Shown one piece after another: positions 5,096 through 62,695 of a stretch of DNA of 64,000 bases. The notes under the pieces were generated by a model. That model was not told the DNA's origin and searched no databases. It worked only from the letters and a program-made list of their open reading frames with translations. This DNA comes from Alphaproteobacteria bacterium. GTDB lineage: Bacteria > Pseudomonadota > Alphaproteobacteria > Micavibrionales > UBA2020. The DNA is taken from NCBI GenBank assembly GCA_025934695.1, contig JAICWS010000004.1, forward strand, positions 193,496 to 257,495. The letters run 5' to 3'. Each line of letters begins with the position of its first letter. The stretch's first letter is position 1. Made by a program: the position numbers and the translations under genes.

Positions 5096-6459
5096 GGCGC
5101 CTTCGCCGCGCCCATGCCGGGCGGCTTGTCGAGCAGAATGTCGACGTTGATGTTCTTGGGCTTGCCGACGAGGACGATGGAGAGATTGTCCGCCTTCAGC
5201 AGTTTCGCCGCGACGCGCTTGATATCCTCGATCGTCAGAGCGTTGATGATGTTGTTGCGGTTGTTGATGTAATTGGGCCCCATGTCGTCGCGCTGCAGGG
5301 AATTCATCGCGTTCGCGATCTCGCCGGTCGAGGTGAGCTCGAGCGGCAGCGCGCCCGTCAGGTACGACTTGGCGTTCTGGAATTCCTCCTGCGTCGGCCC
5401 GTCCTTGGCCATCTGCGTCCAGGACTCCTTCATGAGGCGCAGCGCCTCTTCGACCTTGTCGTTGCTGGCCGACATGTTCACCTGGATGATGCCCGCATGC
5501 GTCGTGCTGGAGAGCATGCTGTAGACGCCATATGTCAACCCGCGCTTTTCGCGGATTTCCTTCATCAGTCGCGCATCAAACGACGAGCCGCCGAGGATGT
5601 AGTTCATGACCATCGCGGCATGCCAGTCTTTGTCGCTGTGCTTGATGCCGGGCTCGCCCGCCGAGATAAAGGTCTGCGGCGTGTCCAGCGGCAGGAGGAT
5701 GATCTTTCCGCCGTATTTCACCTGCGCATCGGTGACGTTGAGCGGGTCGGCCTTCTCGGGCAGCGAGCCGAAAATCTTGTCGATGGCCTTTTCCGCCTCG
5801 TCCTTCGTGATGTCGCCCGCGATGGAAACCTTGAGCACGTTGCGGGCGAATTGCGCGGCCACGTAATCCTGCAGATCCTTGCGGGTGATGGAAGCGATGC
5901 TGTCGAGTGTGCCGTAGCCGGGCTTGGCGTAATAGTGCCCCTCGAACAGCATGCCGTTGAAAGTGCGGGCGACGAGCCATGACGGATCGCCCAAGTCCTT
6001 CTTGATCTCGGACATGGCCGTGTTCTTCATGCGGTCGATCGCGTCCTGGTCGAAGCGCGGCTTGGTCAGCGCGAGGCTGATCAGGCCGAAGGCAAGATCA
6101 CGGTTGGCGCTGAGTGTGCTGATGCTTCCGTAGAAGGCGTCGCGTCCCGCGGTGAAGCTTTCGTTGATCGCGTTATCCTCGAGCTTGCCCTGGTATTCCT
6201 GGCTGGTCATGTCGCCCGCGCCCTCGTCGAGCAGCAGGGAGACGAGATGCCCGGTGCCGGGCTTGTCGTCGGGATCATAGGCGAGGCCGCCCTCGAACGA
6301 GAAGGTCAGGGAAATGACCGGAACCGTATGGTCCTCGACCAGCCAGGCTTCGGCGCCCGGCGGCGCCTTGATGACCTGCACGTCCAGAACCTTGCCCTTG
6401 GCGGCGAAGGCGGGAACCGAGATGAACACGAACAGGAGGAGCGCGAGGATGCGGATCAT
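5092..6459 (-). CDS. M16 family peptidase, non-catalytic-type subunit (no HxxEH)
   Basis: The ORF track extends to 6678, but that extension is Arg-rich shadow sequence. ATG at 6459 gives signal peptide MIRILALLLFVFISVPAFA and an ATGA overlap with the upstream gene. M16 fold with GHLVSLLLDEG in place of HxxEH. Confidence 0.85.
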   Translation of the reverse strand: MIRILALLLFVFISVPAFAAKGKVLDVQVIKAPPGAEAWLVEDHTVPVISLTFSFEGGLAYDPDDKPGTGHLVSLLLDEGAGDMTSQEYQGKLEDNAINESFTAGRDAFYGSISTLSANRDLAFGLISLALTKPRFDQDAIDRMKNTAMSEIKKDLGDPSWLVARTFNGMLFEGHYYAKPGYGTLDSIASITRKDLQDYVAAQFARNVLKVSIAGDITKDEAEKAIDKIFGSLPEKADPLNVTDAQVKYGGKIILLPLDTPQTFISAGEPGIKHSDKDWHAAMVMNYILGGSSFDARLMKEIREKRGLTYGVYSMLSSTTHAGIIQVNMSASNDKVEEALRLMKESWTQMAKDGPTQEEFQNAKSYLTGALPLELTSTGEIANAMNSLQRDDMGPNYINNRNNIINALTIEDIKRVAAKLLKADNLSIVLVGKPKNINVDILLDKPPGMGAAKAP

Positions 6460-7841
6460 GGCTGCTTCTCCCCTTGTTTGGCGGGCGCGGGTGCGGCTGG
6501 TTTCGGCGCCGCGGACCGTGGCGGCATTTTCGCCGGCTCGGCCGGCAGCATCACGCCCGTCACCGGCAGGTCGGGACTGCGGAAGACGGTGTCGGCCGCG
6601 TCGTTCACGTCGTCGATGGTGATTTTCTCGAGCCGGTCGGCGCGGTTCTCTAGATAGTCGATGTCGAAGCCGCTGCACAGCGCGCGGCCGAACAGCAGCG
6701 CGGGCCCCTGCAGGCTGTCGCGGTAGTAGGTGAAGGTGGCGAGCGCCCGCGTGCGCGCGCCTTTTAGCTCTTCCAGCGTCACGCCGCGGTCAAGCAGCGT
6801 CGCGATTTCCTTGTCGATGGCCACTTCCAGCGCCTGCAGCGACGTCCCCGGTGTCGGCGTCGCGTAGATGGTGAAGGTCGTGTCGTTGAGGCTGATGGGG
6901 TCGTAATCGGACGCCGCGTTCACCGCCAGCTTCTGGTCGACGACCAGGTCTTTGTAAAGGCGCGCCGTCGTCGTGCCGCCGAAAATCTCCGACAAGAGGT
7001 CCATCGCGTCATTGCCGCGCGGCACGCGGTATACTTTCATGACCACCGGTTGGCCGACGCGCGGGTCTTCCATGATAAGCTGGTGCTCGACGATGATCGG
7101 CGCAGGGCGCGGGCGCACGCGCTCAGGCACCGCCTGCGCGGGAATGAGGCCGTAATATTTCTCAGCCAATGGCTTGAGCTCCGCCGCCGTGATGTCGCCC
7201 GCCACGATGAGGATGGCGTTATTGGGCTGGTACCACTTGTGGTAATAGTCCAGCGCTTCTTCACGCGTCATTTCCTTCATTTCCTGCAGCCAGCCCAGCA
7301 CGGGGATGGCGTAAGGATGATTGACGAACAGCGCCGCCATCATTTGTTCTTGGAATTTCGACTGCGGCGTGTTGTCGACGCGCTGGTGGCGCTCCTCGAT
7401 GACGACCTGGCGCTCGGAGGCCACCTGCTCGTCGGTGAGGACGAGGTTCTTCATGCGATCGGCTTCCATCTCCATGACTTTTTCAAGATGGTCGCGCGCG
7501 ATATCCTGGTAGAAGGCGGTGTAATCGTGCGTGGTGAAGGCGTTCTCGTTGCCGCCCAGCTTCTTGACGATGAGAGAGAACTGCCCCTCAGGCACTTTTT
7601 GCGTGCCCTTGAACATCAGGTGCTCGAGGAAATGCGCGATGCCGGACTCGCCGGGCTTCGCGTCCGCGCCGCCGAACTTGTACCAGACCATGTGCGACAC
7701 GACGGGCGCGCGGTGGTTCGGAATGACGACGACCTGCATGCCGTTCTGCAGTGTGAAGGTTTCGGCGTTGAAGGTTTTGGCCAATGCGATGCCGGGCAGG
7801 GCGAGCAGCAAGGCCAGAAGGAAGAATATCCGCAGTTTCAT
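6456..7841 (-). CDS. M16 family zinc peptidase (insulinase-like, HxxEH)
   Basis: 'GIAHFLEHLMFKGT' inverted zinc motif. Signal peptide MKLRIFFLLALLLALPGIALA from ATG 7841; alternative GTG at 7853. Confidence 0.9.
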   Translation of the reverse strand: MKLRIFFLLALLLALPGIALAKTFNAETFTLQNGMQVVVIPNHRAPVVSHMVWYKFGGADAKPGESGIAHFLEHLMFKGTQKVPEGQFSLIVKKLGGNENAFTTHDYTAFYQDIARDHLEKVMEMEADRMKNLVLTDEQVASERQVVIEERHQRVDNTPQSKFQEQMMAALFVNHPYAIPVLGWLQEMKEMTREEALDYYHKWYQPNNAILIVAGDITAAELKPLAEKYYGLIPAQAVPERVRPRPAPIIVEHQLIMEDPRVGQPVVMKVYRVPRGNDAMDLLSEIFGGTTTARLYKDLVVDQKLAVNAASDYDPISLNDTTFTIYATPTPGTSLQALEVAIDKEIATLLDRGVTLEELKGARTRALATFTYYRDSLQGPALLFGRALCSGFDIDYLENRADRLEKITIDDVNDAADTVFRSPDLPVTGVMLPAEPAKMPPRSAAPKPAAPAPAKQGEKQP

Positions 7842-14566: not shown

Positions 14567-14837
14567 CGCTTTATTTTCCGGGAGAAGAGGAAAACTCAAG
14601 GGGGCTTCATCAGGATCTTGTATGGCGGATGCATTATCGCCGATTGGCTGATCTGAACGTCACCGTCCGGTAAATGGGATTTAATCTCTTTAAATAAACT
14701 GGCTCGAATAAATTTAAATCCCTCTTGGCGAAAGAATAAGGAAATGCAAAGGGTTAAGAAATCCTTCGCCTCCCTTTCCCGAGGTGGCGTATAATGGAGA
14801 GAGAGATCGTTCCTTAAGAAAAAGGAGGGGAATCGCC

Positions 14838-15005
14838 ATGGCCGTTTCAAACGTCTCGAACAACACCCCGCCACCACCGCCCCGGCAAAACCAGCAGGCG
14901 CAACAGGCCCAGCAGCAGCGCCAGCAGCAACAGCGGACGCAACAGGCCGAGCAACAGCAGCAGTCGAACAGCAGCCGCGGTCAGCACGTCGACGTGACGG
15001 CTTAG
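14838..15005 (+). CDS. Gln-rich low-complexity microprotein (55 aa)
   Basis: AAAGGAGGGG SD 7 nt upstream of the ATG. MAVSNVSNNTPPPPPRQNQQAQQAQQQRQQQQRTQQAEQQQQSNSS.. Confidence 0.5.
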   Translation: MAVSNVSNNTPPPPPRQNQQAQQAQQQRQQQQRTQQAEQQQQSNSSRGQHVDVTA

Positions 15006-15223: not shown

Positions 15224-15619
15224 TCAATCCAGCTTGATGCCCTTTTTCTTGACCTGCTTGAGACGCTTCATTTGCTCGAGCTTGCCGGCTTCGACGTTGC
15301 CGGGGCCGAGCCCGAATTCTTTGGACAGCTGCTTGACGACCGGCACGATCTTCTCGAGCTTGTCGGCGGCGTTGCTGTTGTTGTCCTTGCAGAGCTTGAT
15401 GACGCGCGCGCAATCCTCATCCCAGGTCTCGGGCTTCATGCCGAGTTCCTTCTGCGCGCGGTCGAGTAGGCGGGCGCCGGTCGAGGCGTGGCGGAAGGCG
15501 AGGCGGGACGAGGTGCCCAGCGTCGAGGCCTTGGGGTCGATGATGTCGCGGAACTGCGTGTCGATGTAATCGCTCAAGTCGCGGATAAGCTTTTCGGTGT
15601 CGGGATTCCACTCGGTCAT
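15224..15619 (-). CDS. Hypothetical protein, paralog of 15700-16083
   Basis: 131 aa. Shares '..NP.ASTLGT..R.AFR..' and overall layout with its neighbour. Basic C-terminal tail. Confidence 0.6.
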   Translation of the reverse strand: MTEWNPDTEKLIRDLSDYIDTQFRDIIDPKASTLGTSSRLAFRHASTGARLLDRAQKELGMKPETWDEDCARVIKLCKDNNSNAADKLEKIVPVVKQLSKEFGLGPGNVEAGKLEQMKRLKQVKKKGIKLD

Positions 15620-15699
15620 GGATATTCCTTCTTTTCAAAATTGTTTTACGGGGCGGTTAAATTTTTACCTTATATCGGGGGTTTTGGCAACCCGGGGTT

Positions 15700-16083
15700 T
15701 CAATAAGACAGGTTCAGTTTCTTCGCCTGGCGCACGCCGCGGATGACGGTGATTTCGCCGGGCAGCGCATCTTCCAGCGCACTCATCATTTTCGTGTAAA
15801 CCGGCATGGCCTCTTTCAGCTTCGCGGCCGCGGCGCTGTTGTTCTGCTCGGCCATTTCGATCAGCGCGGGGATATGCTTTTCCGGCGCTGCCGCCACGTC
15901 CCAGCCGGTTTCGGCGTGGATTTTATCCCGCAGGGGTTCGCCCTTCGTCTTGGTGCGGAAGGCGCAGCGCAGCGTCGTGCCGAGCGTGCTGGCGTTCGGG
16001 TTCAGCATGTCTTTCAGCTGGGCTTCGAAAAAATCGCCATATTCGCGGATCAGTCCGTCCAGCTTGGGCGTGTAACCGGGCAT
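15700..16083 (-). CDS. Hypothetical protein, paralog of 15224-15619
   Basis: ATG 16083 is preceded by a GGAGG SD. 127 aa. A TTGACA-N17-AATACT promoter-like sequence lies upstream. Confidence 0.6.
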   Translation of the reverse strand: MPGYTPKLDGLIREYGDFFEAQLKDMLNPNASTLGTTLRCAFRTKTKGEPLRDKIHAETGWDVAAAPEKHIPALIEMAEQNNSAAAAKLKEAMPVYTKMMSALEDALPGEITVIRGVRQAKKLNLSY

Positions 16084-16280
16084 CAAAACCTCCTGAAGCA
16101 CTATGAATTCGAGGCAGTATTGCAAACCGGGGCGGCCCTGTCAACTATTAAGTAAAATCAAAATGACTCGTTTTGTCAGCGGGTTAAATTGCGTTTATAC
16201 TCCTTCAATCCCCTCTCCCGCCATTCGCAAGAGCAATGGGGGAGAGGGGTTTCGCTAGGAAGCGGCACAGGAGAAAACAC

Positions 16281-17328: not shown

Positions 17329-18081
17329 CTATGCCGCTGGCGTCTTCAGCCGCAGCGGACGTTTCACAGCGACGGGAGCCGGGGTGCCCTGGGTTGCGCG
17401 CTGGCGGAAATTGCGTATTTCGTTTTCGACAAAGGCCTCGTCCCGCGCCTGGATGGCATCGCCAAGCGCGGCAAGGGTTTCCTCGCGGTTGTACATCCGC
17501 GCATAGTCCAGTGCGTTTTTCCCTTCGGCGTTTTGCGCGTCGACATCCACGCCCCGGTTGAAAAGGATCATGGCGATCCTGGTTTTCCCGTTGACCGCGG
17601 CCTGCATCAGCGCCGTCCAGCCGTTGTCGGAAGCCGCTTCCGGGTTTGCGCCGCGCCGCAGCAATTCCTGCAGTGTTTCCACGCCGTCCTCGTAGATGGC
17701 GAAGATCACGGGCGTGGTGCCGGCATTGTTTCGCGCTTCGATATCTGCGCCGCGATCGAGGAGAAGCCGGACGACGTCCGTGCGATTACTCCATGCGGCG
17801 GCCATAAGCGGCGTGTGGCCTTTGTCATCGCGCCCTTCGATGTCGGCGCCGCGTTCGAGCAATTCAGCGGTCATGTCGATGCGGCCCCACCAGGCGGCGG
17901 TCATCAGAGGCAATGTCCCGCTGTCGGGAAGCGTTGCTTTCACGCCGCTGGCGCCGAACTTGTCCAGAAACGCCTCAAAACCCGCGGTTCTGCCAAAGCG
18001 AATGTCTTCGTGGAATTTCTTGATGTCCGCTTCATTCGGCGATGCGGGTAATGTCGTGACGGTGGCAAATTCGGTTTTCAT
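17329..18081 (-). CDS. Ankyrin-repeat protein
   Basis: 250 aa. Repeated 'G.TPLM.AA..G....V.LLL.RGADI.A' units. C-terminus ..VAVKRPLRLKTPAA. Confidence 0.85.
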   Translation of the reverse strand: MKTEFATVTTLPASPNEADIKKFHEDIRFGRTAGFEAFLDKFGASGVKATLPDSGTLPLMTAAWWGRIDMTAELLERGADIEGRDDKGHTPLMAAAWSNRTDVVRLLLDRGADIEARNNAGTTPVIFAIYEDGVETLQELLRRGANPEAASDNGWTALMQAAVNGKTRIAMILFNRGVDVDAQNAEGKNALDYARMYNREETLAALGDAIQARDEAFVENEIRNFRQRATQGTPAPVAVKRPLRLKTPAA

Positions 18082-18089
18082 GGCCTCTG

Positions 18090-18122
18090 ATACTACAGAA
18101 TTTCCATAATTATGTCAAATAT
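18090..18122 (-). promoter_or_regulatory. sigma70-type promoter TTGACA-N17-TAGTAT with extended ATATTTGACATAAT box
   Basis: -35 at 18113-18118 and -10 at 18090-18095 (minus strand). Only 8 nt separate the -10 from ATG 18081. Confidence 0.45.
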
Positions 18123-18150
18123 AAATCCGTAAATGTGCCAGACAACCGCG

Positions 18151-18888
18151 TTAGGTGCTGCCGGTTTTTGATGTTGAGCCGGAGGCCGCGGTCGCCGGCG
18201 GGTCGCCGAAGATGCGGATTTTCCGGTCCGGCGCAGCGTCATTGGCGGGACCGGTGACGGACAGGGAGGCTTTGGCGGCCGCAGGGCTTGTGCTTCCGCG
18301 CAGCTTGGCGAATTCCAGCGCCATCCTGCGGCGGACTTCGGTTTCGCTGCGGGGCAGCCTGGCGGCCGCATCCACTTTCGTCTGGGTCAGTTTTTCATTC
18401 GCGAGCGCGCGCATCATCGCGGTCCAGTGATGGTCGGCGAGGGCGCCGGTATTCGCCCCTTGCGCCAGCAGTTCGCGCGCGGCTTCGGTCGCATTGTCGT
18501 AGGTAGTGAAGACGAGGGCGGTCGCACCGATCACGGTCTTGGCCTCCATATCCGCGCCGCGGTCGAGCAGCAGGCGCACGATGTTGAATTTATTGTGCAT
18601 GGCCGCCAGCATCAGCGCGGTGCAGCCGACCGCATCGGCGGCGTTCACATCGGCCGCGCCATATAAAAGATCTTCCACCATGGTCTGGCGGCCCCATTTC
18701 GATGCTGCCATCAGCGGCGTCGCACCGGTTTCCGGCTCGCGCACTTTCGTTGCATCCTGGCGGTACTTGTCGAGGAAATTCTGGAACGGTCCGGGATTGT
18801 TGACGCGGATGGCCTTGAAGAACGCCTTGATCTCGTCAGGCGCAGGTCCTTGCGATGGGTCACGCGGCGATGAAAAAAAGCGTCTCAA
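18151..18888 (-). CDS. Ankyrin-repeat protein (paralog of 17329-18081)
   Basis: 245 aa with ankyrin consensus repeats. TTG start with a GGAGAA SD 9 nt upstream. Confidence 0.8.
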   Translation of the reverse strand: MRRFFSSPRDPSQGPAPDEIKAFFKAIRVNNPGPFQNFLDKYRQDATKVREPETGATPLMAASKWGRQTMVEDLLYGAADVNAADAVGCTALMLAAMHNKFNIVRLLLDRGADMEAKTVIGATALVFTTYDNATEAARELLAQGANTGALADHHWTAMMRALANEKLTQTKVDAAARLPRSETEVRRRMALEFAKLRGSTSPAAAKASLSVTGPANDAAPDRKIRIFGDPPATAASGSTSKTGST

Positions 18889-18920
18889 TAGGGGTTTTCT
18901 CCGGGCAGGGGGAATGTCAA

Positions 18921-18953
18921 AGCCTACAGGCGAATGGATATTATGTCAAAATA
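18921..18953 (-). promoter_or_regulatory. Promoter TTGACA-N17-TAGGCT with TATTTTGACATAAT box
   Basis: -35 at 18944-18949 and -10 at 18921-18926 (minus strand), upstream of the ankyrin gene. Confidence 0.4.
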
Positions 18954-19000
18954 AATCGAGGACGGACAGTAATTGCCTAATGATTTCAATGGATAATTTT

Positions 19001-19033
19001 ATATTTGACATAATAAATAGGGATTTGATATGG
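19001..19033 (+). promoter_or_regulatory. Promoter-like ATATTTGACATAAT box with a weak -10 (ATATGG)
   Basis: -35 at 19005-19010. Divergent from the 18921-18953 promoter and upstream of 19101-19421. Confidence 0.35.
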
Positions 19034-19100
19034 TCTAAGCCAGCAGGGCAACGACCCTGCCTATGTGAAAACAATCAACGGCAGTTAAGAGAAAAAAATC

Positions 19101-19421
19101 ATGGCTGAGTCCACCCCCGACGAGAGCAAGAAACAACCCCTGTTTGAAATTTTCCGCGCCGCGGTCTGGGCGCCGCTGATCGGCGACAAGGAAGTAAAAG
19201 ACGCGGTCGAGGCCGGCAAGAAAGCCGGCGTGACCGAAGCCGAAATGGAAACGGTCCTGGGCTGGGATGCGAAACAGTGCAAAGCCTATTTCGGCGACGC
19301 CGCCTTCGACAACCGCGACTTCATCAATGCGATGAAGGCCAGCGATGCCGTCAGCAGCGTCAGCTTCGGCGGCTGGGGCGCCCCCGGTCCGATCTTCAAG
19401 AAGGGCGGCTTCTACTCGTAA
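19101..19421 (+). CDS. Hypothetical protein (106 aa)
   Basis: ORF followed directly by a rho-independent terminator. No recognisable domain. Confidence 0.55.
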   Translation: MAESTPDESKKQPLFEIFRAAVWAPLIGDKEVKDAVEAGKKAGVTEAEMETVLGWDAKQCKAYFGDAAFDNRDFINAMKASDAVSSVSFGGWGAPGPIFKKGGFYS

Positions 19422-20401: not shown

Positions 20402-21037
20402 TCACGGCCCCGGCTTCAGCTTGAGCTTGAGCGCCCTTCTCACCGTCCCGGCATCCACGAACTGCACGCCGTTCCAGCCGACCGCGCGGCTGGCCATGGC
20501 CACATTCTCGACCTTGTCGTCGAAGAAATACACCTGAGACGGCTCGGGATTGCCGAACTCTTCCTGCGCCAGCGTGAAGATTTTCGCATCCGGCTTTTTC
20601 AGGTGCACTTTGCCTGAAACCACGACCTTGTTGAACTGGCCGAGAATGTCGGGAAAAGCGCCCGGCAGCTTGTCGTAGGTATCGCCCGCCCAGTTGGTGA
20701 GGCCCACGATGCGGTCGCCGTTCGCCTTGATCTCTTCCAGTGCCTCTTTCATGCCGGGCACGACATTGCGCACCTGCTTGAGGTAATCGCGGTCGGCGCC
20801 GAAGGCCCGGATATCGTCCTCCCACGCGGGGTGCTGCTTCACTTTCTGCTCGATCATGTCCTTCAGGTCCCCCGCGTGCGAGGCGGAGCGGTCCTTTTCG
20901 GTGAAGATGTTATTGAGGAAATATTGCAGTTCCTCTTCCCCGCGGCCCGTCTGCTCAAAACGCTCGCGGTAAAAATCCTCCGCCGATGTATCGAAAAGAA
21001 CGCCGCCGAAGTCGAATACGATGGTTCTGCCTGTCAT
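20402..21037 (-). CDS. HAD family hydrolase
   Basis: 211 aa. Motif I 'IVFDFGGVLFD' and motif IV 'FFDD'. Confidence 0.85.
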   Translation of the reverse strand: MTGRTIVFDFGGVLFDTSAEDFYRERFEQTGRGEEELQYFLNNIFTEKDRSASHAGDLKDMIEQKVKQHPAWEDDIRAFGADRDYLKQVRNVVPGMKEALEEIKANGDRIVGLTNWAGDTYDKLPGAFPDILGQFNKVVVSGKVHLKKPDAKIFTLAQEEFGNPEPSQVYFFDDKVENVAMASRAVGWNGVQFVDAGTVRRALKLKLKPGP

Positions 21038-39058: not shown

Positions 39059-39170
39059 AAAATTATTTATCCAGCAAAAACAAGATGTTGAACGTTGCGT
39101 TTGACAGAATTTGCTCCGCAATGCTACAACATGTCATCATCTAGTTTTTTTCAAGGAATGCGCCACAAGC

Positions 39171-39836
39171 ATGACGCCGGCTGAACGAAAACGCGCTGAG
39201 GATCTCTGCGGCAAGGCGACGCCGGGCCCGTGGAATTTCGCCGATGAAAGCTGGGTCGGCGCCTCGCAATTCTGGGTCTATTCGAATCCCGATCCTGATG
39301 TCACCACGCGCGGTGCGCCTGTGTTTGGCAACATCGAAATCGACATGAACGGTCTCAACAACCTCGCTTTCATCACGGACGCGCGCATGCTTCTGCCCAA
39401 GGCGCTGCAGCAGATCGAGGCCTGGCAGGGCGATATCGAGAATATGAAAGCGGGCTTCGCAAAAACATCCGCCCCGATCATGACGGTCGAGGAGATCAAG
39501 CGCGCAAAGGAAATCAGCGCGCAGGCGACACCCGGCGAATGGAGCTGGGAGAACGAAGACAAATTCCTCGGCCCCAACGTCGTCACGCTTTACGCGGGGC
39601 GCGGGTCGATGGCGCATGGGCTTAACCTGTTCGGCCGCTTCGACGGCGGCGCGAACCGCGACAATGATCTCGCCTTCATCACCGAGGTGCGCGCGCTGCT
39701 GCCCAAGGCGCTCGACCACATGGACAAGCTCGGCAACACCGTGCAGCGCATGAAGCGCCCCGGCCTCGCGCTGCGGCCCCAGACTTACAAGCCGTCGGCG
39801 CCCAAACCGCCCCAGCCGAAACCGCCGGGGATGTAA
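39171..39836 (+). CDS. Ead/Ea22-like protein with an internal tandem domain duplication
   Basis: Two ~100-aa repeats, each with 'ATPG(P/E)W' and '(N/D)LAFIT..R.LLPKAL'. Pro-rich C-terminus. Confidence 0.55.
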   Translation: MTPAERKRAEDLCGKATPGPWNFADESWVGASQFWVYSNPDPDVTTRGAPVFGNIEIDMNGLNNLAFITDARMLLPKALQQIEAWQGDIENMKAGFAKTSAPIMTVEEIKRAKEISAQATPGEWSWENEDKFLGPNVVTLYAGRGSMAHGLNLFGRFDGGANRDNDLAFITEVRALLPKALDHMDKLGNTVQRMKRPGLALRPQTYKPSAPKPPQPKPPGM

Positions 39837-39994: not shown

Positions 39995-40576
39995 ATGTCC
40001 GAACAGCAGGACGACGATGACTGGCAGAAAATCTGGGATGCGCGGATCGAGGCGCTGACGCGGGCCTTGGGCGAGCCGGGCGACACCGTGTTTCATTCGC
40101 CGGTTCCTTTCCACCTCGAAGGTTTCGCCGATGTCGTCCCGTTCCCCTCGTACGTGACTGGCATGACCTACGTGACCGCCGACCTCACCGGCCCGGAATC
40201 GGCGCAGATCGACAATGCGCTGGGCAATTACGAGCTGATGATCTGCCTGCAGAAAGATACGCCGGCCGCCGCCGGCCTCATCAGCAAGCTCGCGCGCTAC
40301 ACCTGCGACGCGGAACTGAATCCCGGCGAAACGATGGACATGCCTAATTTCTTCGGCGACAAGACCATGCGCGGCATCCTGTTCACCACGCCGGAGCCGG
40401 AGATTTCCTTCCAGCTCGCGGGCAACGACTGCGGGCTGATGCTGCTCATCGGCATCACCAAGGAAGAGCTGGCGTTCAAGCAACAGCACGGCTCGGAAAA
40501 GCTGCTCGCCCTGCTCAAGCAGCACAAGGTCTTCCCCTACACCATCCCCGACCGGAAAACGGTGCCGCTGGGGTGA
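39995..40576 (+). CDS. Suppressor-of-fused (SUFU)-like domain protein (immunity-type family)
   Basis: 193 aa. Pattern 'VFHSPVPF..G.ADVV.FPS...GMTYVTADL...NYELMICL' resembles bacterial SUFU (PF05076), recalled from memory. Confidence 0.55.
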   Translation: MSEQQDDDDWQKIWDARIEALTRALGEPGDTVFHSPVPFHLEGFADVVPFPSYVTGMTYVTADLTGPESAQIDNALGNYELMICLQKDTPAAAGLISKLARYTCDAELNPGETMDMPNFFGDKTMRGILFTTPEPEISFQLAGNDCGLMLLIGITKEELAFKQQHGSEKLLALLKQHKVFPYTIPDRKTVPLG

Positions 40577-40939: not shown

Positions 40940-41647
40940 ATGGTTGTAAGCCTTAAAGCGGTGTCAATGAATCCCGTGCGTCTTTGTTTTGTCATTATCG
41001 CTCTTTTCCTCGGCACGGCGCCCGCCCACGCGGGACGGCTCGAGGATGGCACGGCCGCGCTGATCGCGGGCAACTTCCAGGACGCCATGATTTATCTCCA
41101 GCCGCTCGCGCGCATGGGCGATGTCCATGCCCAGGTCGCCATCGGCGTGCTGCACGAAAAGAGAAGCGATTACGCCGAAGCCATGAAATGGTACCGCACG
41201 GCGGCCGACAAGGGCGATCCCGTGGCGGCATGGCTGATCGGGATGCTGTACGATAACGGCAAATACACCGTCCATCCGCCCTATGACCTGGGCGGCGCGG
41301 TCAAGCCCGACATGAACGAAGCGGCGAAATGGTTTCGCAAGGCCGCCGACGGCGGCGTTCCCGCAGCCCAAGCCAGCCTTGCCCAGATGTACGTCGAAGG
41401 CTATGGCGATCTAAAGCCCGACAAGGCCGAAGCCGATTTCTGGTACAGCCTCGCGGTCGCATCGAACGCTTATTCCGACCTCGCGCTCTACGGAATCGCG
41501 CCCGGTTTCGTGGACATTACCCATGTGAAAGAGCTGGCCAAAGTATCGCGCGCTGATGTCGAACCCTCCCTGTCGCCCGCCCAGCTTGCCGCGGTGCAAA
41601 AACGGGTGAAGGAATGGACGCCGACGGGGCCTTCCGCCTCGCATTGA
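40940..41647 (+). CDS. Sel1-repeat (TPR-like) secreted protein
   Basis: Signal peptide ..MNPVRLCFVIIALFLGTAPAHA. Repeated 'A..WYR.AA..G...A...LG.MY..G' units. Alternative start at 40967. Confidence 0.85.
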   Translation: MVVSLKAVSMNPVRLCFVIIALFLGTAPAHAGRLEDGTAALIAGNFQDAMIYLQPLARMGDVHAQVAIGVLHEKRSDYAEAMKWYRTAADKGDPVAAWLIGMLYDNGKYTVHPPYDLGGAVKPDMNEAAKWFRKAADGGVPAAQASLAQMYVEGYGDLKPDKAEADFWYSLAVASNAYSDLALYGIAPGFVDITHVKELAKVSRADVEPSLSPAQLAAVQKRVKEWTPTGPSASH

Positions 41648-42196: not shown

Positions 42197-42607
42197 ATGA
42201 CCAATGATGTTGTAGATCCAGAAGATTTCGACGATCCGGGCATGTCGCTGACGCCGGACGGCAACTGCCGCGAGTGGCGCGACGCAAAGGGCCAGCTGCA
42301 CCGCGACAATGACCTGCCGGCCGTCAAATGGCAGGACGGCATCCGCTGCTGGTACCAGCATGGCAAGCTGCACCGCGAAGCCGGCGCCGCCTATGTGGAG
42401 CCGAATGGCCATACCGAGTTTTACATCGACGGCGAACAGGTGAGCTTCGCGCAACATCGCGAATGGCGGCAGAATTTACTTGAGGAGCGCGAGCGGCAGC
42501 GCGAGGAACGTCTGCAGCAGATTATGGAAGTGGCGCGGGATGCGACGGTCCTGAAATCCACCATCACCGTCGGCCGCGTCCTGCGCCTTAGGGCCGCCTT
42601 TTCATGA
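42197..42607 (+). CDS. MORN-variant repeat protein (YwqK-like repeats)
   Basis: 136 aa. Repeats 'G.LHRDNDLPAV.W.DG..CWYQHGKLHREAGAAYVEPNG..EFYIDG'. C-terminal tail DATVLKSTITVGRVLRLRAAFS. Confidence 0.6.
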   Translation: MTNDVVDPEDFDDPGMSLTPDGNCREWRDAKGQLHRDNDLPAVKWQDGIRCWYQHGKLHREAGAAYVEPNGHTEFYIDGEQVSFAQHREWRQNLLEERERQREERLQQIMEVARDATVLKSTITVGRVLRLRAAFS

Positions 42608-43218
42608 CGCTGCCTTTCAATCAGTCCTCTGCCGATATGCGGAAGACCGCACGCGGCATTCTCGACAGCTGGGGAGTGGAATACACGCGGGAACCCAACG
42701 GTTCGCTGCTGATCACCGGCGATATGTGGGACAAGGGGCCGGCGGGCCTGAGCGCAATGAGCAAGATGCGCACATTGGCAAAGCAACTGCTCGGCGACGA
42801 CCGGGCGCTGATTATCTATAACATGGCTGAATTTGCCGAAGAATATTCGCGCTACCGGATCACGGGGGTGCCGCCGGGTTACAGCGGCTTTGAGGAAGGT
42901 TCGCCACTCGCCAACGAGGTGCGCAAGAGACCCAAGGTGCTGCTGGTGATGGACGAAATTGAAAAGGGCAAGGCAGAGGTGGTGGCAATTCTCGACCGGG
43001 TGCTGGCGGATGGAATGCTCACCGATGGGACGGGCCGGCAGGCATCCATGGAGGGCGTCATTCCCATCAAGCTGTCGGCGGAAGTGTCGCGCCTGGAATG
43101 CGGACACCGCGAACGCGAGAGGCTCGACAAATTCATCGCGCACGCTACCGTCCTTCGGCGCTCGATGACAGTCCGAAAGCCGCTGCAGCTGAAGCAAACG
43201 CCGGCGGTTGCATCATGA
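42604..43218 (+). CDS. Degenerate Clp/Hsp100 D2-like AAA+ domain protein (Walker A disrupted)
   Basis: 204 aa. 'GVPPGYSGFEEGSPLANEVRKRPKVLLVMDEIEKG..V...LDRVLADGMLTDGTGR' parallels ClpB '[57 protein letters not shown]'. 'GPAGLSAM' replaces GPTGVGKT. ATGA overlaps at both ends. Confidence 0.6.
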   Translation: MTLPFNQSSADMRKTARGILDSWGVEYTREPNGSLLITGDMWDKGPAGLSAMSKMRTLAKQLLGDDRALIIYNMAEFAEEYSRYRITGVPPGYSGFEEGSPLANEVRKRPKVLLVMDEIEKGKAEVVAILDRVLADGMLTDGTGRQASMEGVIPIKLSAEVSRLECGHRERERLDKFIAHATVLRRSMTVRKPLQLKQTPAVAS

Positions 43219-43514
43219 GGCAGTCCTTCAACGCCGCCGCCGGAGGCGCGCCTTCGATGGTCCTGCTCGACGAGGCCGACAGGGCCAGTCCCGACGTCCT
43301 CAGGGAGTTACTCAAGATCATGGACGCGGGCATCCATAAGCCGGAGGTTGTCAGCGCACTTTCCGGCAACGCGCCTTACCTTCCGGGCTCCGAAGAAGTT
43401 GTGGCGGACGGGTGGAAGTCGCTCGACGATGTCGTGGCCGAGGCCACCGTCCTGCAATCCCCGCTCACCGTGGGCAGGCCGATCAGCTTCAAGAACCGGC
43501 TTGCGTTTTTCTGA
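43215..43514 (+). CDS. Small protein with an AAA+ Walker-B-like fragment
   Basis: 99 aa. 'MVLLDEADRASPDVLRELLKIMDAG'. Tail EATVLQSPLTVGRPISFKNRLAFF. Confidence 0.5.
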   Translation: MRQSFNAAAGGAPSMVLLDEADRASPDVLRELLKIMDAGIHKPEVVSALSGNAPYLPGSEEVVADGWKSLDDVVAEATVLQSPLTVGRPISFKNRLAFF

Positions 43515-44912: not shown

Positions 44913-45347
44913 CTATTTGTTATCGATTGTATTCAGGACGGTCGCGATTGCCTCTGAAATGCCGATTGTAAAAACGCCAGCATGTTGATCTGCCTGCCAA
45001 CGCTTATAGCTATCTTCAAAGTCCTTCTTTGGTCTAACATCGACAGCGATTAGATGGTCAACAGACGAGGCAAATGCCCGTTCATCGAAAGGCAAATAGT
45101 CGATTTCCGTCGGTCCTGATTGATCTGACTTGCTCGGCAGATCTATCACCGACACATGCACTACCGTATTCCCGTGCCACGATTCGACACGACCGATGAT
45201 GACTTTTGCCGTTGTCGGTGGTGATGCCTTTATCGACCACTCTTGGCCGGGTACAAACTCCATTTCTCGTCCATTCGGGGCGTCAGCATACGCCCACCTG
45301 GGTAAGGGCAATGCCAATAATAGTGCAACAAACGCCCATCTGATCAT
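44913..45347 (-). CDS. Hypothetical secreted protein (144 aa)
   Basis: Signal peptide MIRWAFVALLLALPLPRWAYA. ATGA-coupled to the upstream immunity-like gene. Confidence 0.6.
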   Translation of the reverse strand: MIRWAFVALLLALPLPRWAYADAPNGREMEFVPGQEWSIKASPPTTAKVIIGRVESWHGNTVVHVSVIDLPSKSDQSGPTEIDYLPFDERAFASSVDHLIAVDVRPKKDFEDSYKRWQADQHAGVFTIGISEAIATVLNTIDNK

Positions 45348-45628
45348 TGTTCCTCCAATAACTCGCGAATTGTTCGTAACAGCTTTAGTAGTGTTTGACT
45401 ATTGTTCGTAGAAATATCCGCAGGAGTGTTTCTCCATAATGCTTGAAGCTCATCGGCCCCATGCTCCCCAGTAAGGATTTCATCTAGGAATCTGCGGACC
45501 ACGCTCCTCTCTGTTTCGTTTAGCGCCTGAACGCCAATTCGAGCCGCATCCTCTAGCGATGTATGTATAAGGAATACATCCTGATGAAAGTAGGAGCACA
45601 GTTTATTAAATTCTTTCGGCGCGATCAT
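45344..45628 (-). CDS. CdiI-like contact-dependent-inhibition immunity protein
   Basis: 'FNKLCSYFHQDVF' resembles the 'YFHQDW' motif of CDI immunity families. ATG 45628 forms an ATGA overlap with the Rhs toxin stop. Confidence 0.6.
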   Translation of the reverse strand: MIAPKEFNKLCSYFHQDVFLIHTSLEDAARIGVQALNETERSVVRRFLDEILTGEHGADELQALWRNTPADISTNNSQTLLKLLRTIRELLEEQ

Positions 45629-47487
45629 TTGTCTATAGTTCCCGGCCAAGCTGATACAACAGAAAATCCATTTGCTGACTCTGGATTATGTCGAATTACA
45701 ACCCCGACTCCAAATGTAGTACGCTGCTCGCCGCTAGGATAGAGGACTTCGTATCCGGTGCTACTCAGGAAACTAGAGCCGACAAGCGCCTCTTTGAGTG
45801 TTCCGTTGGCAACTAGGGCTACGACTGCTGAGTTTTGGGAGAGGGCCGAGTTAACCAATTTGGTCGCAGACTGGAGAGAACAGAACGAGCTTGCTCGCTC
45901 AAGGTGCCAGCCATCATTATTAGCCGCCAGTAACCGGAGCCACAGGTATTCGCTGCTTTTTCCTACGTGCTCAGCGATGGTGTGTCCACCATTCGTTTCC
46001 TCTTCCAAAAGATCAATGCGATATCCTTGGAGAGGTGTGCGCAATTTACTCAAGCCCAACGGGTCGAAACCACTGACCGGATTTGCTCCATAGGAATATA
46101 AGTTGACGCCGCCAGCTTCTCCCATCGGATCTTTGTTAAGCCACCGGCCTGTCGCGGGATCGAAGGGCCGCGTCATTGAAAGGTTGAGGCTACTAATGGG
46201 GTGAGAGAACAATTCGGCATATTGATAATCTGTTGCCGTGCTTCCGTTACTACGAGTAACAGCCCCGTAAGGCGTGTAATCATACGATTGGACAAGATTT
46301 CCGGTCGTGGCGTCCAACACATCTCTGACCGCATCGAGTTGGTCCGGCATAAAGGTGACGTTCGGCGTCGGATTGATCGTGCTGGTATAGGTGATGCCGG
46401 TCACCTCATCATCCGCATCATAGCTGAATGTCTTCACCTGGCCCAGCGCGTCGGTCACGGACTTCAGGCGGCTGGTGCTGTTTTCGTAGGTGTAAGTCTC
46501 AGTCTTGGCCGAGGATGTGCCATAGGCGTAGATCTTGTCGATAGGGCGGCCTTCGATGTCGATGTCCCAATGCGTGATGTTGCCTTTCGCATCGGTGATT
46601 TCCTTCAGCTTGCCGTTTTCGTAATAGCTGTAGGAGGTCGTGCGCGTGGTGCTGCTGGTCAGCGGTTCGGTGACCGATGTGAGGCGCTGGTCGGCGTCAT
46701 AGCCATAGGTTGTCACGCGTCCCAGCCGGTCGGTGTATTTGCGCAGTTCCATGCTGGGCGTGCCGACATAAGGGCCGCTCTGGAAGTTATAGTCGAACAG
46801 GTCCGTCGTTGAGTCGGGATAGGTGATGGAGGTCACGCGGTCGAGGTTGTCGTAGGCATAGGTCAGCGTATAGCCCTGGCTGTCCGTGCGCGTCTGCACG
46901 CGGTCGTCAGCGTCATAGGTCAGCGTCAGCACCGTCTGGCTGTTGGCGTTGACGATGGTCGACAGGCGGTTGGAGGCGTCGTAGTTGTAGGTCGTCACGC
47001 CCGCGTTCGGGTCGGTCACCGTGTGCAACTGGCCGTTGGTCTGATACGTATAATTCCACGTCTTGGAATCGGCACCAGTATAGGTTTGCGGCTCGTGCTG
47101 GGTGTTATAGCTGCCATAGGTCGCAATCGTGTTGGAGTTCTGCTTCACCGTTAAAAGATCGTTGTGGTTCGCGGCATAGGCGAATGTCGTCGAGCGGCCC
47201 ACCGGGTCGGTGACTAACTGCGGCACCCAGGTGAAAGGTTGAACGGAAATCTGCTGAAGTGAGACAGACTGCGAAGCCCCGCTGTCGAGAAGGCGCGCAA
47301 CGTTTCTCGGCTGGTCGGGATAGCCGCCAGTATAGCCGCTGGGAGGCTGGTTCCAGTAGGAAAACCACAGGCGCTTTTCCAGCGGCGGCTTGATGCTGGC
47401 GACTTCGCGCCCGACCGTCAGGGTCGAGCCCGTGTTCGGGTCATGGTACCAGTGAATTGTTTTCGACTTGGTGAAATCTTCCGACAC
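45625..47487 (-). CDS. N-terminally truncated RHS-repeat protein with RNase A-like (CdiA-CT type) C-terminal toxin domain; orphan cassette
   Basis: YD/RHS repeats ('YTYD..DRV', 'YGYDADQRLTSVT'). Core end 'NLYSYGANPVSGFDPLGL'. Toxin region 'NGGHTIAEHVGKS..ASSF..A..LV..AL..N'. The frame is open only to the stop at 47608-47610 and the first canonical start is GTG 47487 with no SD. Confidence 0.75.
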   Translation of the reverse strand: MSEDFTKSKTIHWYHDPNTGSTLTVGREVASIKPPLEKRLWFSYWNQPPSGYTGGYPDQPRNVARLLDSGASQSVSLQQISVQPFTWVPQLVTDPVGRSTTFAYAANHNDLLTVKQNSNTIATYGSYNTQHEPQTYTGADSKTWNYTYQTNGQLHTVTDPNAGVTTYNYDASNRLSTIVNANSQTVLTLTYDADDRVQTRTDSQGYTLTYAYDNLDRVTSITYPDSTTDLFDYNFQSGPYVGTPSMELRKYTDRLGRVTTYGYDADQRLTSVTEPLTSSTTRTTSYSYYENGKLKEITDAKGNITHWDIDIEGRPIDKIYAYGTSSAKTETYTYENSTSRLKSVTDALGQVKTFSYDADDEVTGITYTSTINPTPNVTFMPDQLDAVRDVLDATTGNLVQSYDYTPYGAVTRSNGSTATDYQYAELFSHPISSLNLSMTRPFDPATGRWLNKDPMGEAGGVNLYSYGANPVSGFDPLGLSKLRTPLQGYRIDLLEEETNGGHTIAEHVGKSSEYLWLRLLAANNDGWHLERASSFCSLQSATKLVNSALSQNSAVVALVANGTLKEALVGSSFLSSTGYEVLYPSGEQRTTFGVGVVIRHNPESANGFSVVSAWPGTIDK

Positions 47488-47583
47488 GGGCGCGCCACAG
47501 GTGTTGGTCGCAACGCCCAGCGCGAAGGCATGCTTGTCCCAATAGTAGGAATTGCGCCATTGCAGGAGGCCATTATGTGCAAG

Positions 47584-47627
47584 GAATTGAGTGTTGTGTC
47601 CCCGGAATTAATAGTGTCACCGGAATT
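47584..47627 (+). repeat. Two degenerate copies of the 26-bp repeat (..GTGTCCCCGGAATT, ATAGTGTCACCGGAATT)
   Basis: 47584-47609 matches the 44.4-kb repeat at 20 of 26 positions. 47611-47627 matches its 3' 17 nt with 1 mismatch. Same orientation. Confidence 0.75.
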
Positions 47628-47640
47628 CTCCGAAATTAAA

Positions 47641-48591
47641 TCACTCTTCGTGGGGAGGCGACACAATTTCAATGGCGCCGCTAATCTCCCTATTTAATGC
47701 CGGCAATTCTGATTTAGCACACTCAAATATTTCAAAATCTAGTCCATCAATGTTCTTAACATATCTGGAACGATAATTTAATTTCACCATGGGAAGGTGA
47801 AATTTTGCCAATGGGGATTTTTTCACACTGAATAAAGCTCTCTGCTTTTCCTGATCTTCAGCTCCAAAATGTGGGAAATACAGAACTAATTCCTCACTAC
47901 TGTTCTCAGAAAGAAAGGCCTTAAATCCTGTTTTCGCAATCGAAGCAACTTCTGCATCTTCTACGAATTTGTACATCTTCTGCAGCCCCCATTGGAGGCC
48001 CTCATTCCGTCTATATTCGAGCCAAATTTCATTTTGTTCTTGGCTGTAGCCTAGTAATAATCCCTCCATTAATTCCAAGGTATCATCCCATTTCACTCTT
48101 CGAGAAATATCTTGAACAAGTCGGTACGCATTAATACGCCAAGCTTCCTTTGGAAGAGCACACATAAATGTTTGGATATCGTCAGAAAACTTCGCTATCG
48201 CCCAGCCTCTCTCGTCGGCCATTGGCACAAAATATTTATCTAAAATTTTCGCCATGGCAGCGGACGGATTCTCAAAAACGGAGAAAGGTTTTATTCCTTT
48301 TAACATCAAATCGAACTCGCGACCACCATGAATTCTATAAGGTAAATCGGACAACTCGTGTCTCAATCTGACTGGAAATTCTTTCCATGAACTCAACTCT
48401 GCGCCAGCTTCCTCCCACTCATCTACAATTTTCCGTTTTAGAGCGTGGCATGCATTCGCCGGCAACTGTCCCATTTCATCCCGTATGTCTTTAGGCAGCA
48501 TTTCTATTGGATATTTTTCCAAATATATTTCATGCAAAAGATATTCTGTTGTTTCGTCATATACATCGAGACTAAAAAATGAAAAAGGCAT
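47641..48591 (-). CDS. Hypothetical protein (316 aa) in a markedly AT-rich segment
   Basis: Long ORF whose composition is clearly different from flanking DNA. No domain recognised. Confidence 0.6.
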   Translation of the reverse strand: MPFSFFSLDVYDETTEYLLHEIYLEKYPIEMLPKDIRDEMGQLPANACHALKRKIVDEWEEAGAELSSWKEFPVRLRHELSDLPYRIHGGREFDLMLKGIKPFSVFENPSAAMAKILDKYFVPMADERGWAIAKFSDDIQTFMCALPKEAWRINAYRLVQDISRRVKWDDTLELMEGLLLGYSQEQNEIWLEYRRNEGLQWGLQKMYKFVEDAEVASIAKTGFKAFLSENSSEELVLYFPHFGAEDQEKQRALFSVKKSPLAKFHLPMVKLNYRSRYVKNIDGLDFEIFECAKSELPALNREISGAIEIVSPPHEE

Positions 48592-55046: not shown

Positions 55047-55706
55047 TTATTCTTCCGCGAGGTCGTAGCCGAAACGCGCGGCAAGCGCCTCGATTCCGCG
55101 CCATGTTCTTTCGTCTTCGCGCTTTACTTCCGACAGGCCGCTCTTATGCCCGTAGCCGCGCCGCGATCTGCGGCTGTCGCCGTGAGATTCCGCGGCCGCG
55201 ATAAGCGACGGGTCGAGGCGCTTGCCGAAAAAATCGCTGAGCGCCGCGACCGTCTCGGCAGGGTTGCCGCGGAAATCCTCGAGGCGGACGGACAGGGCGG
55301 CGTTCGCGAGCGCCATATTGTTCCAGTGCAGCCAGTAGCGCGCGGCGGCGATCGGGCGGCTGGGATGGCGGCACTGCGGCGTATAATCAAAAATATAATC
55401 CCAGGCGCGCGCGGAAAAGGTCTGCAATGACGCGATCGTCGGAACCGGATGACGGATCTGGTGCAGGGTCTTGCCAAAGACGGCGCCGCGCGCCCGGCAG
55501 AAGTCGGGCGACGCGCAGAGCCAGCCGACCGCGCCTTGCGTGCCCGTCGCCTCATGTCCCATGTCGAGCCCGTTGAGCGCCAGGAACTTGGCAATGAAAT
55601 GCGTACCGCTGCGCCCGCAGCCCGTCACGAGGAAGGGATAGGTTCCAGCGAGGATATTGTGACGCTCCTCGTCACGGATGCCGAGAAGCCGTTTTAAAAA
55701 ACGCAT
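55047..55706 (-). CDS. Sulfotransferase-like protein
   Basis: 'VTGCGRSGTHFIAKFL' (PAPS 5'-PSB-like loop), 'QIRHPVPTIAS' (3'-PB-like), 'VRLEDF'. The ORF track starts at TTG 55742. Confidence 0.55.
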   Translation of the reverse strand: MRFLKRLLGIRDEERHNILAGTYPFLVTGCGRSGTHFIAKFLALNGLDMGHEATGTQGAVGWLCASPDFCRARGAVFGKTLHQIRHPVPTIASLQTFSARAWDYIFDYTPQCRHPSRPIAAARYWLHWNNMALANAALSVRLEDFRGNPAETVAALSDFFGKRLDPSLIAAAESHGDSRRSRRGYGHKSGLSEVKREDERTWRGIEALAARFGYDLAEE

Positions 55707-56024
55707 CTGGAATTTCTGCCCAATCTGGATACCTGTCTTCAAAAGCTATCGGGGCGCGGCCATGGGGTCAATAAAGCCATCGTGGGCAACCTGCGGGATA
55801 CGGCGCAACCAGCTGAAATAAAAGGAGTAGCCGCATGTTACGGAATTGTCGAGCCCCCGAATCCGTCTTGATTTTGTTTTACATATGGTGTTATATGTCC
55901 GGCATCGCAGGACTTTCAGGACACCGGCGCCGCCCAACCCATTGGGCGGCAGAAGAAAAAGCGGGTGACGGCACTGACATGGCGGGATAGTTTTGACGAA
56001 CAGTGAAATGATCCGGGGCACGAC

Positions 56025-62536: not shown

Positions 62537-62695
62537 TTGACGGCCCGCGACCCTGTGCTGACATCACGGCAGCCATCGGCCTTTGACACCGCCCTTCAGA
62601 CCGGCATCCAGAACAACATGCATGAGATTGAGCGCCCGCCCCCCACAGGCGCGGATGCTTCTGCCATTTTTCAATCCAGGAAAGGCAATCGATGA
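62537..62695 (+). CDS. Possible upstream micro-ORF (52 aa) ATGA-coupled to the ankyrin gene
   Basis: GAAGGAGG SD at 62523-62530, a 7-nt spacer, then TTG 62537. Its stop overlaps ATG 62692. Confidence 0.35.
   Translation: MTARDPVLTSRQPSAFDTALQTGIQNNMHEIERPPPTGADASAIFQSRKGNR

Follow-up and report, generated by a model that had tools for sequence, protein, structure and literature searches.

The 64-kb window considered here, i.e., the whole stretch of DNA analysed, has a G+C content of about 60% and a gene content that looks alphaproteobacterial, with some 55 genes definable along its length. Five of the encoded proteins, designated carriers A to E, share a short conserved element at their extreme C-terminal end, hereafter called the tail (Table 1). 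By comparison with Pfam, ankyrin repeats are present in carriers A and B as well as in a tail-less neighbour of A designated G, and the small gene at 19101-19421 is designated H. The genes of carriers C, D and E overlap by ATGA and thus make up one translationally coupled operon, of which C is the first gene. A MORN label for C, considered in connection with an earlier sequence-only reading of the window, is not confirmed by Pfam. Carrier D is recognised by Pfam AAA_2 and, far below the cut-off, by the NCBIfam ClpB model at positions 592-712. Both D and E overlap over the same part of the second nucleotide-binding domain (NBD2) of ClpB/ClpA and are therefore paralogous pieces rather than two halves of one gene.

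Table 1. Tail carriers and related features of the window (aa, amino acids; "-stop" marks the stop codon closing the reading frame).
Feature	Position	Strand	Basis or remark
Carrier A: 250-aa ankyrin-repeat protein, long C-terminal helix then tail	17329-18081	-	Pfam Ank_2, 5.9e-41
Tail of A: GTPAPVAVKRPLRLKTPAA-stop	17329-17388	-	RPLRLK core at 17344-17361
Carrier B: 269-aa ankyrin-repeat protein	62692-63501	+	Pfam Ank families
Tail of B: NATVEAIEISKPLELKRPEPPKQPKSFSI-stop	63412-63501	+	IEISKPLELK core at 63430-63459
Carrier C: 136 aa, no Pfam family	42197-42607	+	Tail ATVLKSTITVGRVLRLRAAFS-stop at 42542-42607
Carrier D: 204 aa, degenerate fragment of a ClpB/ClpA-type second AAA+ module	42604-43218	+	Tail ATVLRRSMTVRKPLQLKQTPAVAS-stop at 43144-43218
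Carrier E: 99 aa, short AAA+ Walker-B fragment	43215-43514	+	Tail ATVLQSPLTVGRPISFKNRLAFF-stop at 43443-43514
G: ankyrin paralog of A (43% identity), no tail	18151-18888	-	Alignment with A
Possible sixth carrier: HAD-family hydrolase (20402-21037) ending in GTVRRALKLKLKPGP-stop	20420-20446	-	Motif-pattern match
Possible degenerate tail copy KRPGLALRP in the protein at 39111-39836	39756-39776	+	Gapped-pattern match

The tails of A and B fit the pattern h-x-[VI]-x-[KR]-P-[LI]-x-[LF]-K (h, hydrophobic; x, any residue), namely the same core as in the genes at 42.2-43.5 kb, and C, D and E have in common the longer motif A-T-V-L-x4-T-V-x-[KR]-[PV]-[LI]-x-[LF]-[KR]. The full module can thus be written A-T-V-L-x4-[TK]-V-x-[KR]-P-[LI]-x-[LF]-K, i.e., about 17 residues lying 0-13 residues ahead of the stop. 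Taking the six reading frames of the window together, five matches to the core hexapeptide [KR]P[LI]x[LF]K are obtained, and four of them fall in real genes (A, B, D and E), each of them 4-13 residues ahead of the stop. From the amino-acid composition of 52 window proteins, carriers C, D and E being left out, the expected number of core matches is 0.14 over all positions and 0.0067 for matches lying no more than 15 residues from the C-terminus, as against two C-terminal matches (A and B) observed (P=2e-5); with the ten-residue form h-x-[VI]-x-[KR]-P-[LIM]-x-[LF]-K, the probability for A and B is 1.6e-8. The claim of the sequence-only reading that these two ankyrin proteins share a tail core with the genes at 42.2-43.5 kb is therefore upheld. 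No internal core match occurs in the 18,441 aa of the window proteins and, when about 50 kb of related loci are added to the window, the core is found 11 times at a C-terminus and never internally, so that the anticipated excess of C-terminal over internal matches is indeed observed. In 111 kb of unrelated control contigs, the balance is reversed, with four internal matches and none at a C-terminus. As had also been stated from the sequence, the motif is not found on any housekeeping protein of the window. A DNA repeat or a mobile element, translated where it coincides with the end of a gene, was considered and ruled out: the DNA coding for the tail differs between carriers in its codon choice and the flanks are unrelated, and tails encoded by different DNA are therefore not a DNA repeat. 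In short, the existence of the tail is established: it is modular, found at C-termini only, and missing from housekeeping proteins.

The carriers are not equally close to the tails found outside the window. When a profile built solely from such external tails was run on 1,370 six-frame segments, D scored 21 bits, E 17 bits and C 8.8 bits, as compared to merely 3.6 bits for B (rank 4) and a position outside the top 14 for A; with the full profile, the tail of B reached 23 bits. A and B thus carry diverged copies of the tail. An end-to-end multiple alignment nevertheless shows that A is homologous in both body and tail to an external family of ankyrin-plus-tail proteins, the homology running from the repeats via a "YAR-Y" segment and the long helix into the tail, which keeps A-T...P-h-x-V-x-[KR]-P-[LI]-x-L-K. 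Carrier B, a singleton at 90% identity in a collection of 15 billion proteins, shows outside the tail only generic repeat similarity to A (BLASTP) and to the external ankyrin family; its tail nevertheless keeps A-T-V and I-x-I-x-K-P-L-x-L-K-R. Because the likeness of B to A and to the external family is merely that of generic repeats and yet the tail motif is kept, sequence comparison indicates that the tail is present on at least six unrelated bodies. The bodies on which it was encountered comprise two ankyrin lineages, the ClpB-fragment pair, the family-less protein C, a small membrane protein, a 74-aa disordered peptide and bodyless relics, some of which come from outside the window.

Using HMMER with a profile of the five window tails, seven matches at E <= 0.001 were retrieved from 1.84 billion representative proteins, namely four repeat proteins, C itself, an ortholog of E (P0002) and a membrane protein (P0008). 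Three of the four repeat proteins (P0005-P0007) were recognised as such by sequence inspection; for the fourth (P0003, 3,046 aa), the assignment is drawn from the summed score, with no single matched stretch. P0008 is an unrelated 149-aa protein with three transmembrane (TM) segments ending in DATVLQAPMTVNKPLRLKV-stop. A homolog search with D returned only D itself, for which a DNA pattern match was also recorded. In parallel, a degenerate DNA pattern of the motif, with stop codons left unspecified, was scanned against one genome for each of 185,579 species and matched three places: (i) an ankyrin gene of an uncultured Micavibrio sp. metagenome-assembled genome (MAG), which ends in GATVLEQPLTVAKPITLKR-stop, (ii) its ortholog in an Alphaproteobacteria MAG, which ends in GATVLDKSMTVAKPITLKR-stop and is adjoined by a 74-aa open reading frame (ORF) ending in GATVLNHAIKVAKPIALKGR-stop, and (iii) an internal chance match in a Bacteroidales contig. 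A relaxed pattern run over a metagenome collection gave 17 chance matches, all of them internal or in non-coding frames and none C-terminal; the contigs concerned are of unrelated composition, and the matches were therefore used as a negative control. Seven orthologs of the ankyrin-plus-tail protein were identified at 61-74% identity, metagenome contigs being among their sources, and all seven end in GAT[VI]L-x-x-[PS]-h-T-V-[AT]-[KR]-P-I-T-[LF]-K-[RQ]-stop; for the more distant ankyrin matches P0016-P0020, signal peptides are present and the tail was not found. In these searches, the tail is confined to a narrow alphaproteobacterial clade and is most often found on ankyrin proteins, which are the most frequent carriers both in the window and in relatives, in agreement with the emphasis of the sequence-only reading on ankyrin proteins. 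Of the dispersed cargo family proposed in that reading, the part that stands is a modular C-terminal element on unrelated proteins at dispersed loci.

In the relatives, a conserved operon was observed at L022 8031-10618, L025 3634-6428 and L028 2476-5047, with, in order, a tail-less ankyrin protein, a two-half NT5C-like protein (HAD superfamily), an optional 74-aa tail peptide and, last, the ankyrin-plus-tail protein; the genes downstream encode a GGDEF protein, an EipB-like protein and a protease of the Lon family. Tails nearly without a body occur at L026 6174-6269 (the same in L025 at 7350-7445) and on the minus strand of L028 at 5559-5630, one reading GATILNNPIRVTKPMTLKR-stop with no in-frame start codon and the other EDATVLKHATRAMKPITLKISD-stop directly after a stop codon; both resemble leftovers of carriers that were lost not long ago.

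Several observations bear on the maintenance of the tail as a peptide. In the ortholog set, the tail is conserved to the same degree as the ankyrin core, with column identities of 0.79 and 0.82, respectively. The invariant residues of the tail are encoded by two to three synonymous codons each, and the x positions 7, 8, 10 and 13 vary freely; the peptide is thus under purifying selection. Contig L001, from a close relative of the window organism (85-90% nucleotide identity), retains the tail on the orthologs of both C and E (P0002); in its segment 477-962, about 600 bp of D have been deleted and the first residues of D are fused to E, the tail of D being left as an out-of-frame relic, MAVRRPLQLKQ, at 481-570. 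That fragmentary or fast-changing genes keep the tail is what one would expect were selection to act on the tail. In AlphaFold2 (AF2) models, the ankyrin proteins P0009 and A consist of confident bodies (mean predicted local distance difference test score, pLDDT, of 90 for the model of A) extended by a long terminal helix, after which the tail is a coil with a pLDDT of 40-50; because of this low-confidence coil, the tail is predicted to be an exposed, disordered linear peptide, neither a domain nor docked on the groove of the repeats. No N-terminal signal peptide or hydrophobic segment is present in A-E (N-terminal hydrophobicity <1.1). The last 20 residues of the carriers are basic, with an isoelectric point (pI) of 9.7-12, and most bodies are acidic; over the last 60 residues, the proportion of L, D, A, V, T, S, I and F (LDAVTSIF) is 48-60% and that of K, H, P, M, W and C (KHPMWC) 7-33%.

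With respect to base composition, a bias of the carriers towards AT-rich islands was not found: their G+C content (0.60-0.64) and G+C content at third codon positions (0.73-0.82) are ordinary for the window (means of 0.602 and 0.77, respectively). The sole low-G+C island, at 44-50 kb (0.50-0.53 vs 0.60 elsewhere), holds an Rhs toxin and no tails. There, the minus-strand gene at 45625-47487 encodes an Rhs-repeat protein whose C-terminal part is a CdiA-CT RNase A toxin domain, after which come a weak CdiI-like immunity candidate (45344-45649) and a small ORF (44913-45347), the whole span 44913-48591 being on the minus strand.

The list of carriers proposed from the sequence was longer than the one retained here. 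The "weaker versions" of the tail seen at 18151-18888, 19101-19421, 15700-16083, 39171-39836 and 63-1496 score at background with each of three profiles and, once A-E are set aside, the loose patterns that admit them are not significantly enriched at C-termini, so that these weaker carriers drop out of the proposed family. In the case of G, KIRIFGDP was rejected as a tail since KIRIFGD aligns to the pre-tail helix of A, EIRNFRQ. Two further candidates deserve mention. In the protein at 39111-39836, KRPGLALRP corresponds to the core with one inserted residue, 19 residues ahead of the stop; it is matched by the gapped pattern only and has no profile score, and it is possibly a degenerate copy of the tail. 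The pattern [TS][VI]x[KR]x[LI]x[LF][KR] matches only C, D, E, one non-coding frame and the HAD hydrolase at 20402-21037, which was not mentioned in the sequence-only reading and could on that basis be a sixth carrier. Its profile score is at background and its HAD domain ends at residue 185 of 211; the end segment may simply be the native last helix of the HAD fold.

As regards function, the most likely reading is that of a lineage-specific, uncleaved C-terminal export or translocation signal, to which a probability of about 0.45 is attached. The lack of signal peptide on the carriers together with an exposed, disordered tail fits a cargo or targeting label, i.e., an address, and the step from address to secretion is one that we infer. 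In such a scheme, the tail, joined by a helix or a flexible linker to unrelated proteins made in the cytoplasm, would be recognised by an export ATPase of the inner membrane, which would select the carriers for one-step export or translocation out of the cell; candidates for this ATPase are a type I ABC transporter and a type IV coupling protein.

Substrates of VirB/VirD4 type IV secretion systems (T4SS) possess C-terminal signals that are positively charged or hydrophobic (PMC11098119). Like the tail, the signals of these type IVA systems, e.g., in the Agrobacterium Vir effectors and the Bartonella Beps, remain uncleaved at the very C-terminal end, lack structure and are enriched in basic and hydrophobic residues; the effector bodies that bear them are unrelated to one another and, in other alphaproteobacteria, include ankyrin proteins (PMC11098119). 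The position of the tail at the extreme C-terminus and its lack of structure in the AF2 models agree with this type of signal. The VirB/VirD4 signals, however, consist of loose charge patterns or of an added BID domain, whereas the consensus of the tail is sharp over 17 residues and includes an invariant proline and a lysine/arginine pair. For type I secretion systems (T1SS), an uncleaved signal is sought in the last ~60 residues, rich in LDAVTSIF and poor in KHPMWC, with an acidic protein or C-terminus, and in the T1SS-secreted ankyrin proteins of Orientia the LDAVTSIF-rich signal in these last ~60 residues follows no consensus (PMC4315096). The T1SS effectors of Rickettsiales (Orientia Anks, Ehrlichia Ank200) are, like the ankyrin carriers, alphaproteobacterial ankyrin proteins without signal peptides, and the carriers further resemble the Orientia Anks in a LDAVTSIF content within the reported range, mostly acidic bodies and few cysteines (PMC4315096). 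Their signals differ from the tail in being acidic and devoid of consensus, the tail being basic and rich in lysine and proline, two residues described as rare in T1SS signals.

Other systems resemble the tail in some respects only. The sorting signals of the CTERM type (PEP-CTERM, GlyGly-CTERM) and the C-terminal domain (CTD) of type IX secretion system (T9SS) substrates are also C-terminal address elements found on many unrelated proteins within one genome. These systems need an N-terminal signal peptide plus either a TM helix at the C-terminus or a folded domain spanning 70-100 aa, and the carriers have no signal peptide, TM helix or folded CTD, the tail being a hydrophilic coil; no NCBIfam or Pfam model of these systems matches over the tails. 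The PRANC/F-box-like domains of poxviruses, Orientia and Wolbachia likewise constitute a conserved element at the C-terminal end of ankyrin proteins. PRANC is a folded helical domain of ~40-50 aa restricted to ankyrin proteins, unlike the tail, which is a 17-residue coil also present on non-ankyrin bodies, and no carrier has a PRANC or F-box match in Pfam.

A number of points weigh against the tail being an export signal. Neither the window nor the ~50 kb of related loci yielded any secretion-system gene, be it of a T4SS or for the ABC transporter, membrane fusion protein and TolC of a T1SS, and no secretion or sorting model of Pfam or NCBIfam matches the tail. Within A-E, there are zero RTX GGxGxD repeats and the Agrobacterium consensus R-x7-R-x-R-x-R is absent. 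A basic, proline/lysine-rich tail is atypical for T1SS signals, and the final 25 residues have a net charge (+1 to +6) not clearly distinct from the window background (1.2 +/- 2.2). Known T1SS and T4SS signals are fuzzy, and a consensus as sharp as that of the tail is more typical of a peptide docking on one specific partner. The only cultured relatives named in any record belong to Micavibrio, the link with the window organism resting on the shared motif, and cultured M. aeruginosavorus has type I and type II secretion systems and no type III or type IV (PMC3189940). In a bolder form of the export reading, the tail would be the sharply defined delivery signal of an export route not yet described for the group, marking the whole set of proteins sent into another cell, prey or eukaryotic host, by uncultured Micavibrio-like alphaproteobacteria; such a proposal is rather unlikely as matters stand.

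Alternatively, the tail could be a short linear docking motif for one common partner without any role in export, the partner being a bacterial scaffold or chaperone, or else a host or prey protein bound after delivery by another signal. The sharp consensus and its alternation of hydrophobic and polar residues suit a strand-type docking, the tail is disordered and exposed in the AF2 models, and a competing or regulatory role is conceivable for tiny carriers that are little more than a tail, such as the 74-aa peptide and P0008. A docking motif does not, however, need the strict terminal position observed in every case, 0-13 residues from the stop, and no conserved candidate partner is found beside the carriers; this possibility is deemed unlikely, though the most probable of the alternatives to export. 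An exposed C-terminal peptide with basic and hydrophobic residues could also function as a degron handing the carriers to an AAA+ protease of the ClpXP or Lon class for regulated turnover, and three related contigs encode a Lon-family protease at a distance of 5-6 kb from their ankyrin-tail genes. This proximity is not seen in the window, though, and the proteins bearing the tail are not regulators: they are accessory, eukaryote-like or fragmentary. Beyond the motif, the carriers run on for 0-13 residues and close differently (..PAA, ..AFF, ..LKR, ..FSI), unlike degrons read through the free carboxyl group. A degron is improbable.

Nearest to the tail in format are the targeting peptides that load cargo into encapsulins, the core of which reads, e.g., (L/I)-(T/G)-(V/I)-G-S-L-(K/R) (PMC7925596). 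The tail could accordingly serve as a cargo-loading peptide for an encapsulin-like or other protein shell, the arrangement being the same, with the products of unrelated cargo genes at dispersed sites each ending, past a flexible linker, in a short conserved peptide, and PLTVGRPISFK in E resembles the targeting peptide PLTVGSLRRGG of M. xanthus (PMC7925596). The resemblance stops at the LTVG prefix of C and E, as none of the tails contains the GSL core that is widely conserved in encapsulin peptides, and neither the scanned ORFs of the window nor the called genes of the related loci include a shell gene. The types of carriers here are also unlike known cargo, ankyrin repeats, a membrane protein and AAA+ fragments not being known as cargo types, which counts against such a shell and leaves it quite improbable. 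As for an absence of function, i.e., a similarity due to chance or left over from common ancestry among paralogs, the adjacency of C, D and E could have allowed the tail to be copied from one to another, A shares ancestry with the external ankyrin family, and A and B score poorly with the external-only profile. Set against this are the probabilities of about 2e-5 to 1.6e-8 for A and B, the unrelated bodies of the carriers, the divergence of the tail DNA with the peptide kept and the invariant C-terminal position, and such a view, already disfavoured, is very improbable.

Signals for one-step secretion of types I and IV being fuzzy, effector prediction in uncultured bacteria is unreliable. Were the tail an export signal, a crisp and short C-terminal consensus, common to eukaryote-like and orphan proteins, would allow direct prediction of effectors from the sequence and, in the bolder form with an undescribed route, a single 17-residue profile would read out the effector repertoire from sequence alone. 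This would be of added value in a lineage for which MAGs and a single group of cultured epibiotic predators are the only sources, and the tail would be usable as a handle for finding its receptor. Even as a docking motif or a degron, it would represent a previously unannotated functional module found in a very narrow clade among 1.84 billion representative proteins.

The surroundings of the carriers in the window contain several genes of further interest. Just upstream of the C-D-E operon lie genes for a SUFU-like protein (39995-40576) and for a Sel1-repeat protein with an N-terminal hydrophobic segment (40940-41647). The SUFU-like family is often met as immunity proteins of polymorphic toxins. 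A Sel1 protein is also encoded about 5 kb from the ankyrin-tail gene in L022. The protein at 39111-39836 contains a domain of no known kind present twice (..AERKRAEDLCGKATPGPWNF.. and ..EEIKRAKEISAQATPGEWSW..) and has a proline/lysine-rich end, PKPPQPKPPGM-stop. Beside the ankyrin pair of A and G, at 15224-16125 on the minus strand, are encoded two adjacent paralogous small proteins of 131 and ~127-141 aa belonging to no known family, which have in common ..IRE/DL.DY...Q.+D...P.ASTLGT.. and where the local G+C content is lower (0.55); a small ORF at 14784-15005 encodes a glutamine-rich, low-complexity peptide (..PPPPPRQNQQAQQAQQQRQQQQRTQQAEQQQQ..), also of no known family. At 59591-62401 are found tandem paralogs, each composed of an N-terminal TerB and a bacterial PH (bPH_2) domain, with near-identical C-terminal ends (..PPIADPHSFSTLVDRARRMWR.. 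and ..PPVADPHTFSTLVDRARRAWR..); a bPH_2 protein is likewise encoded near the ankyrin cluster in L022. Finally, the region 53067-58013 corresponds to a cluster for the modification of surface polysaccharides, the members of which include an acyltransferase_3 plus SGNH protein, a sulfotransferase-like protein and a fused sulfotransferase-glycosyltransferase.

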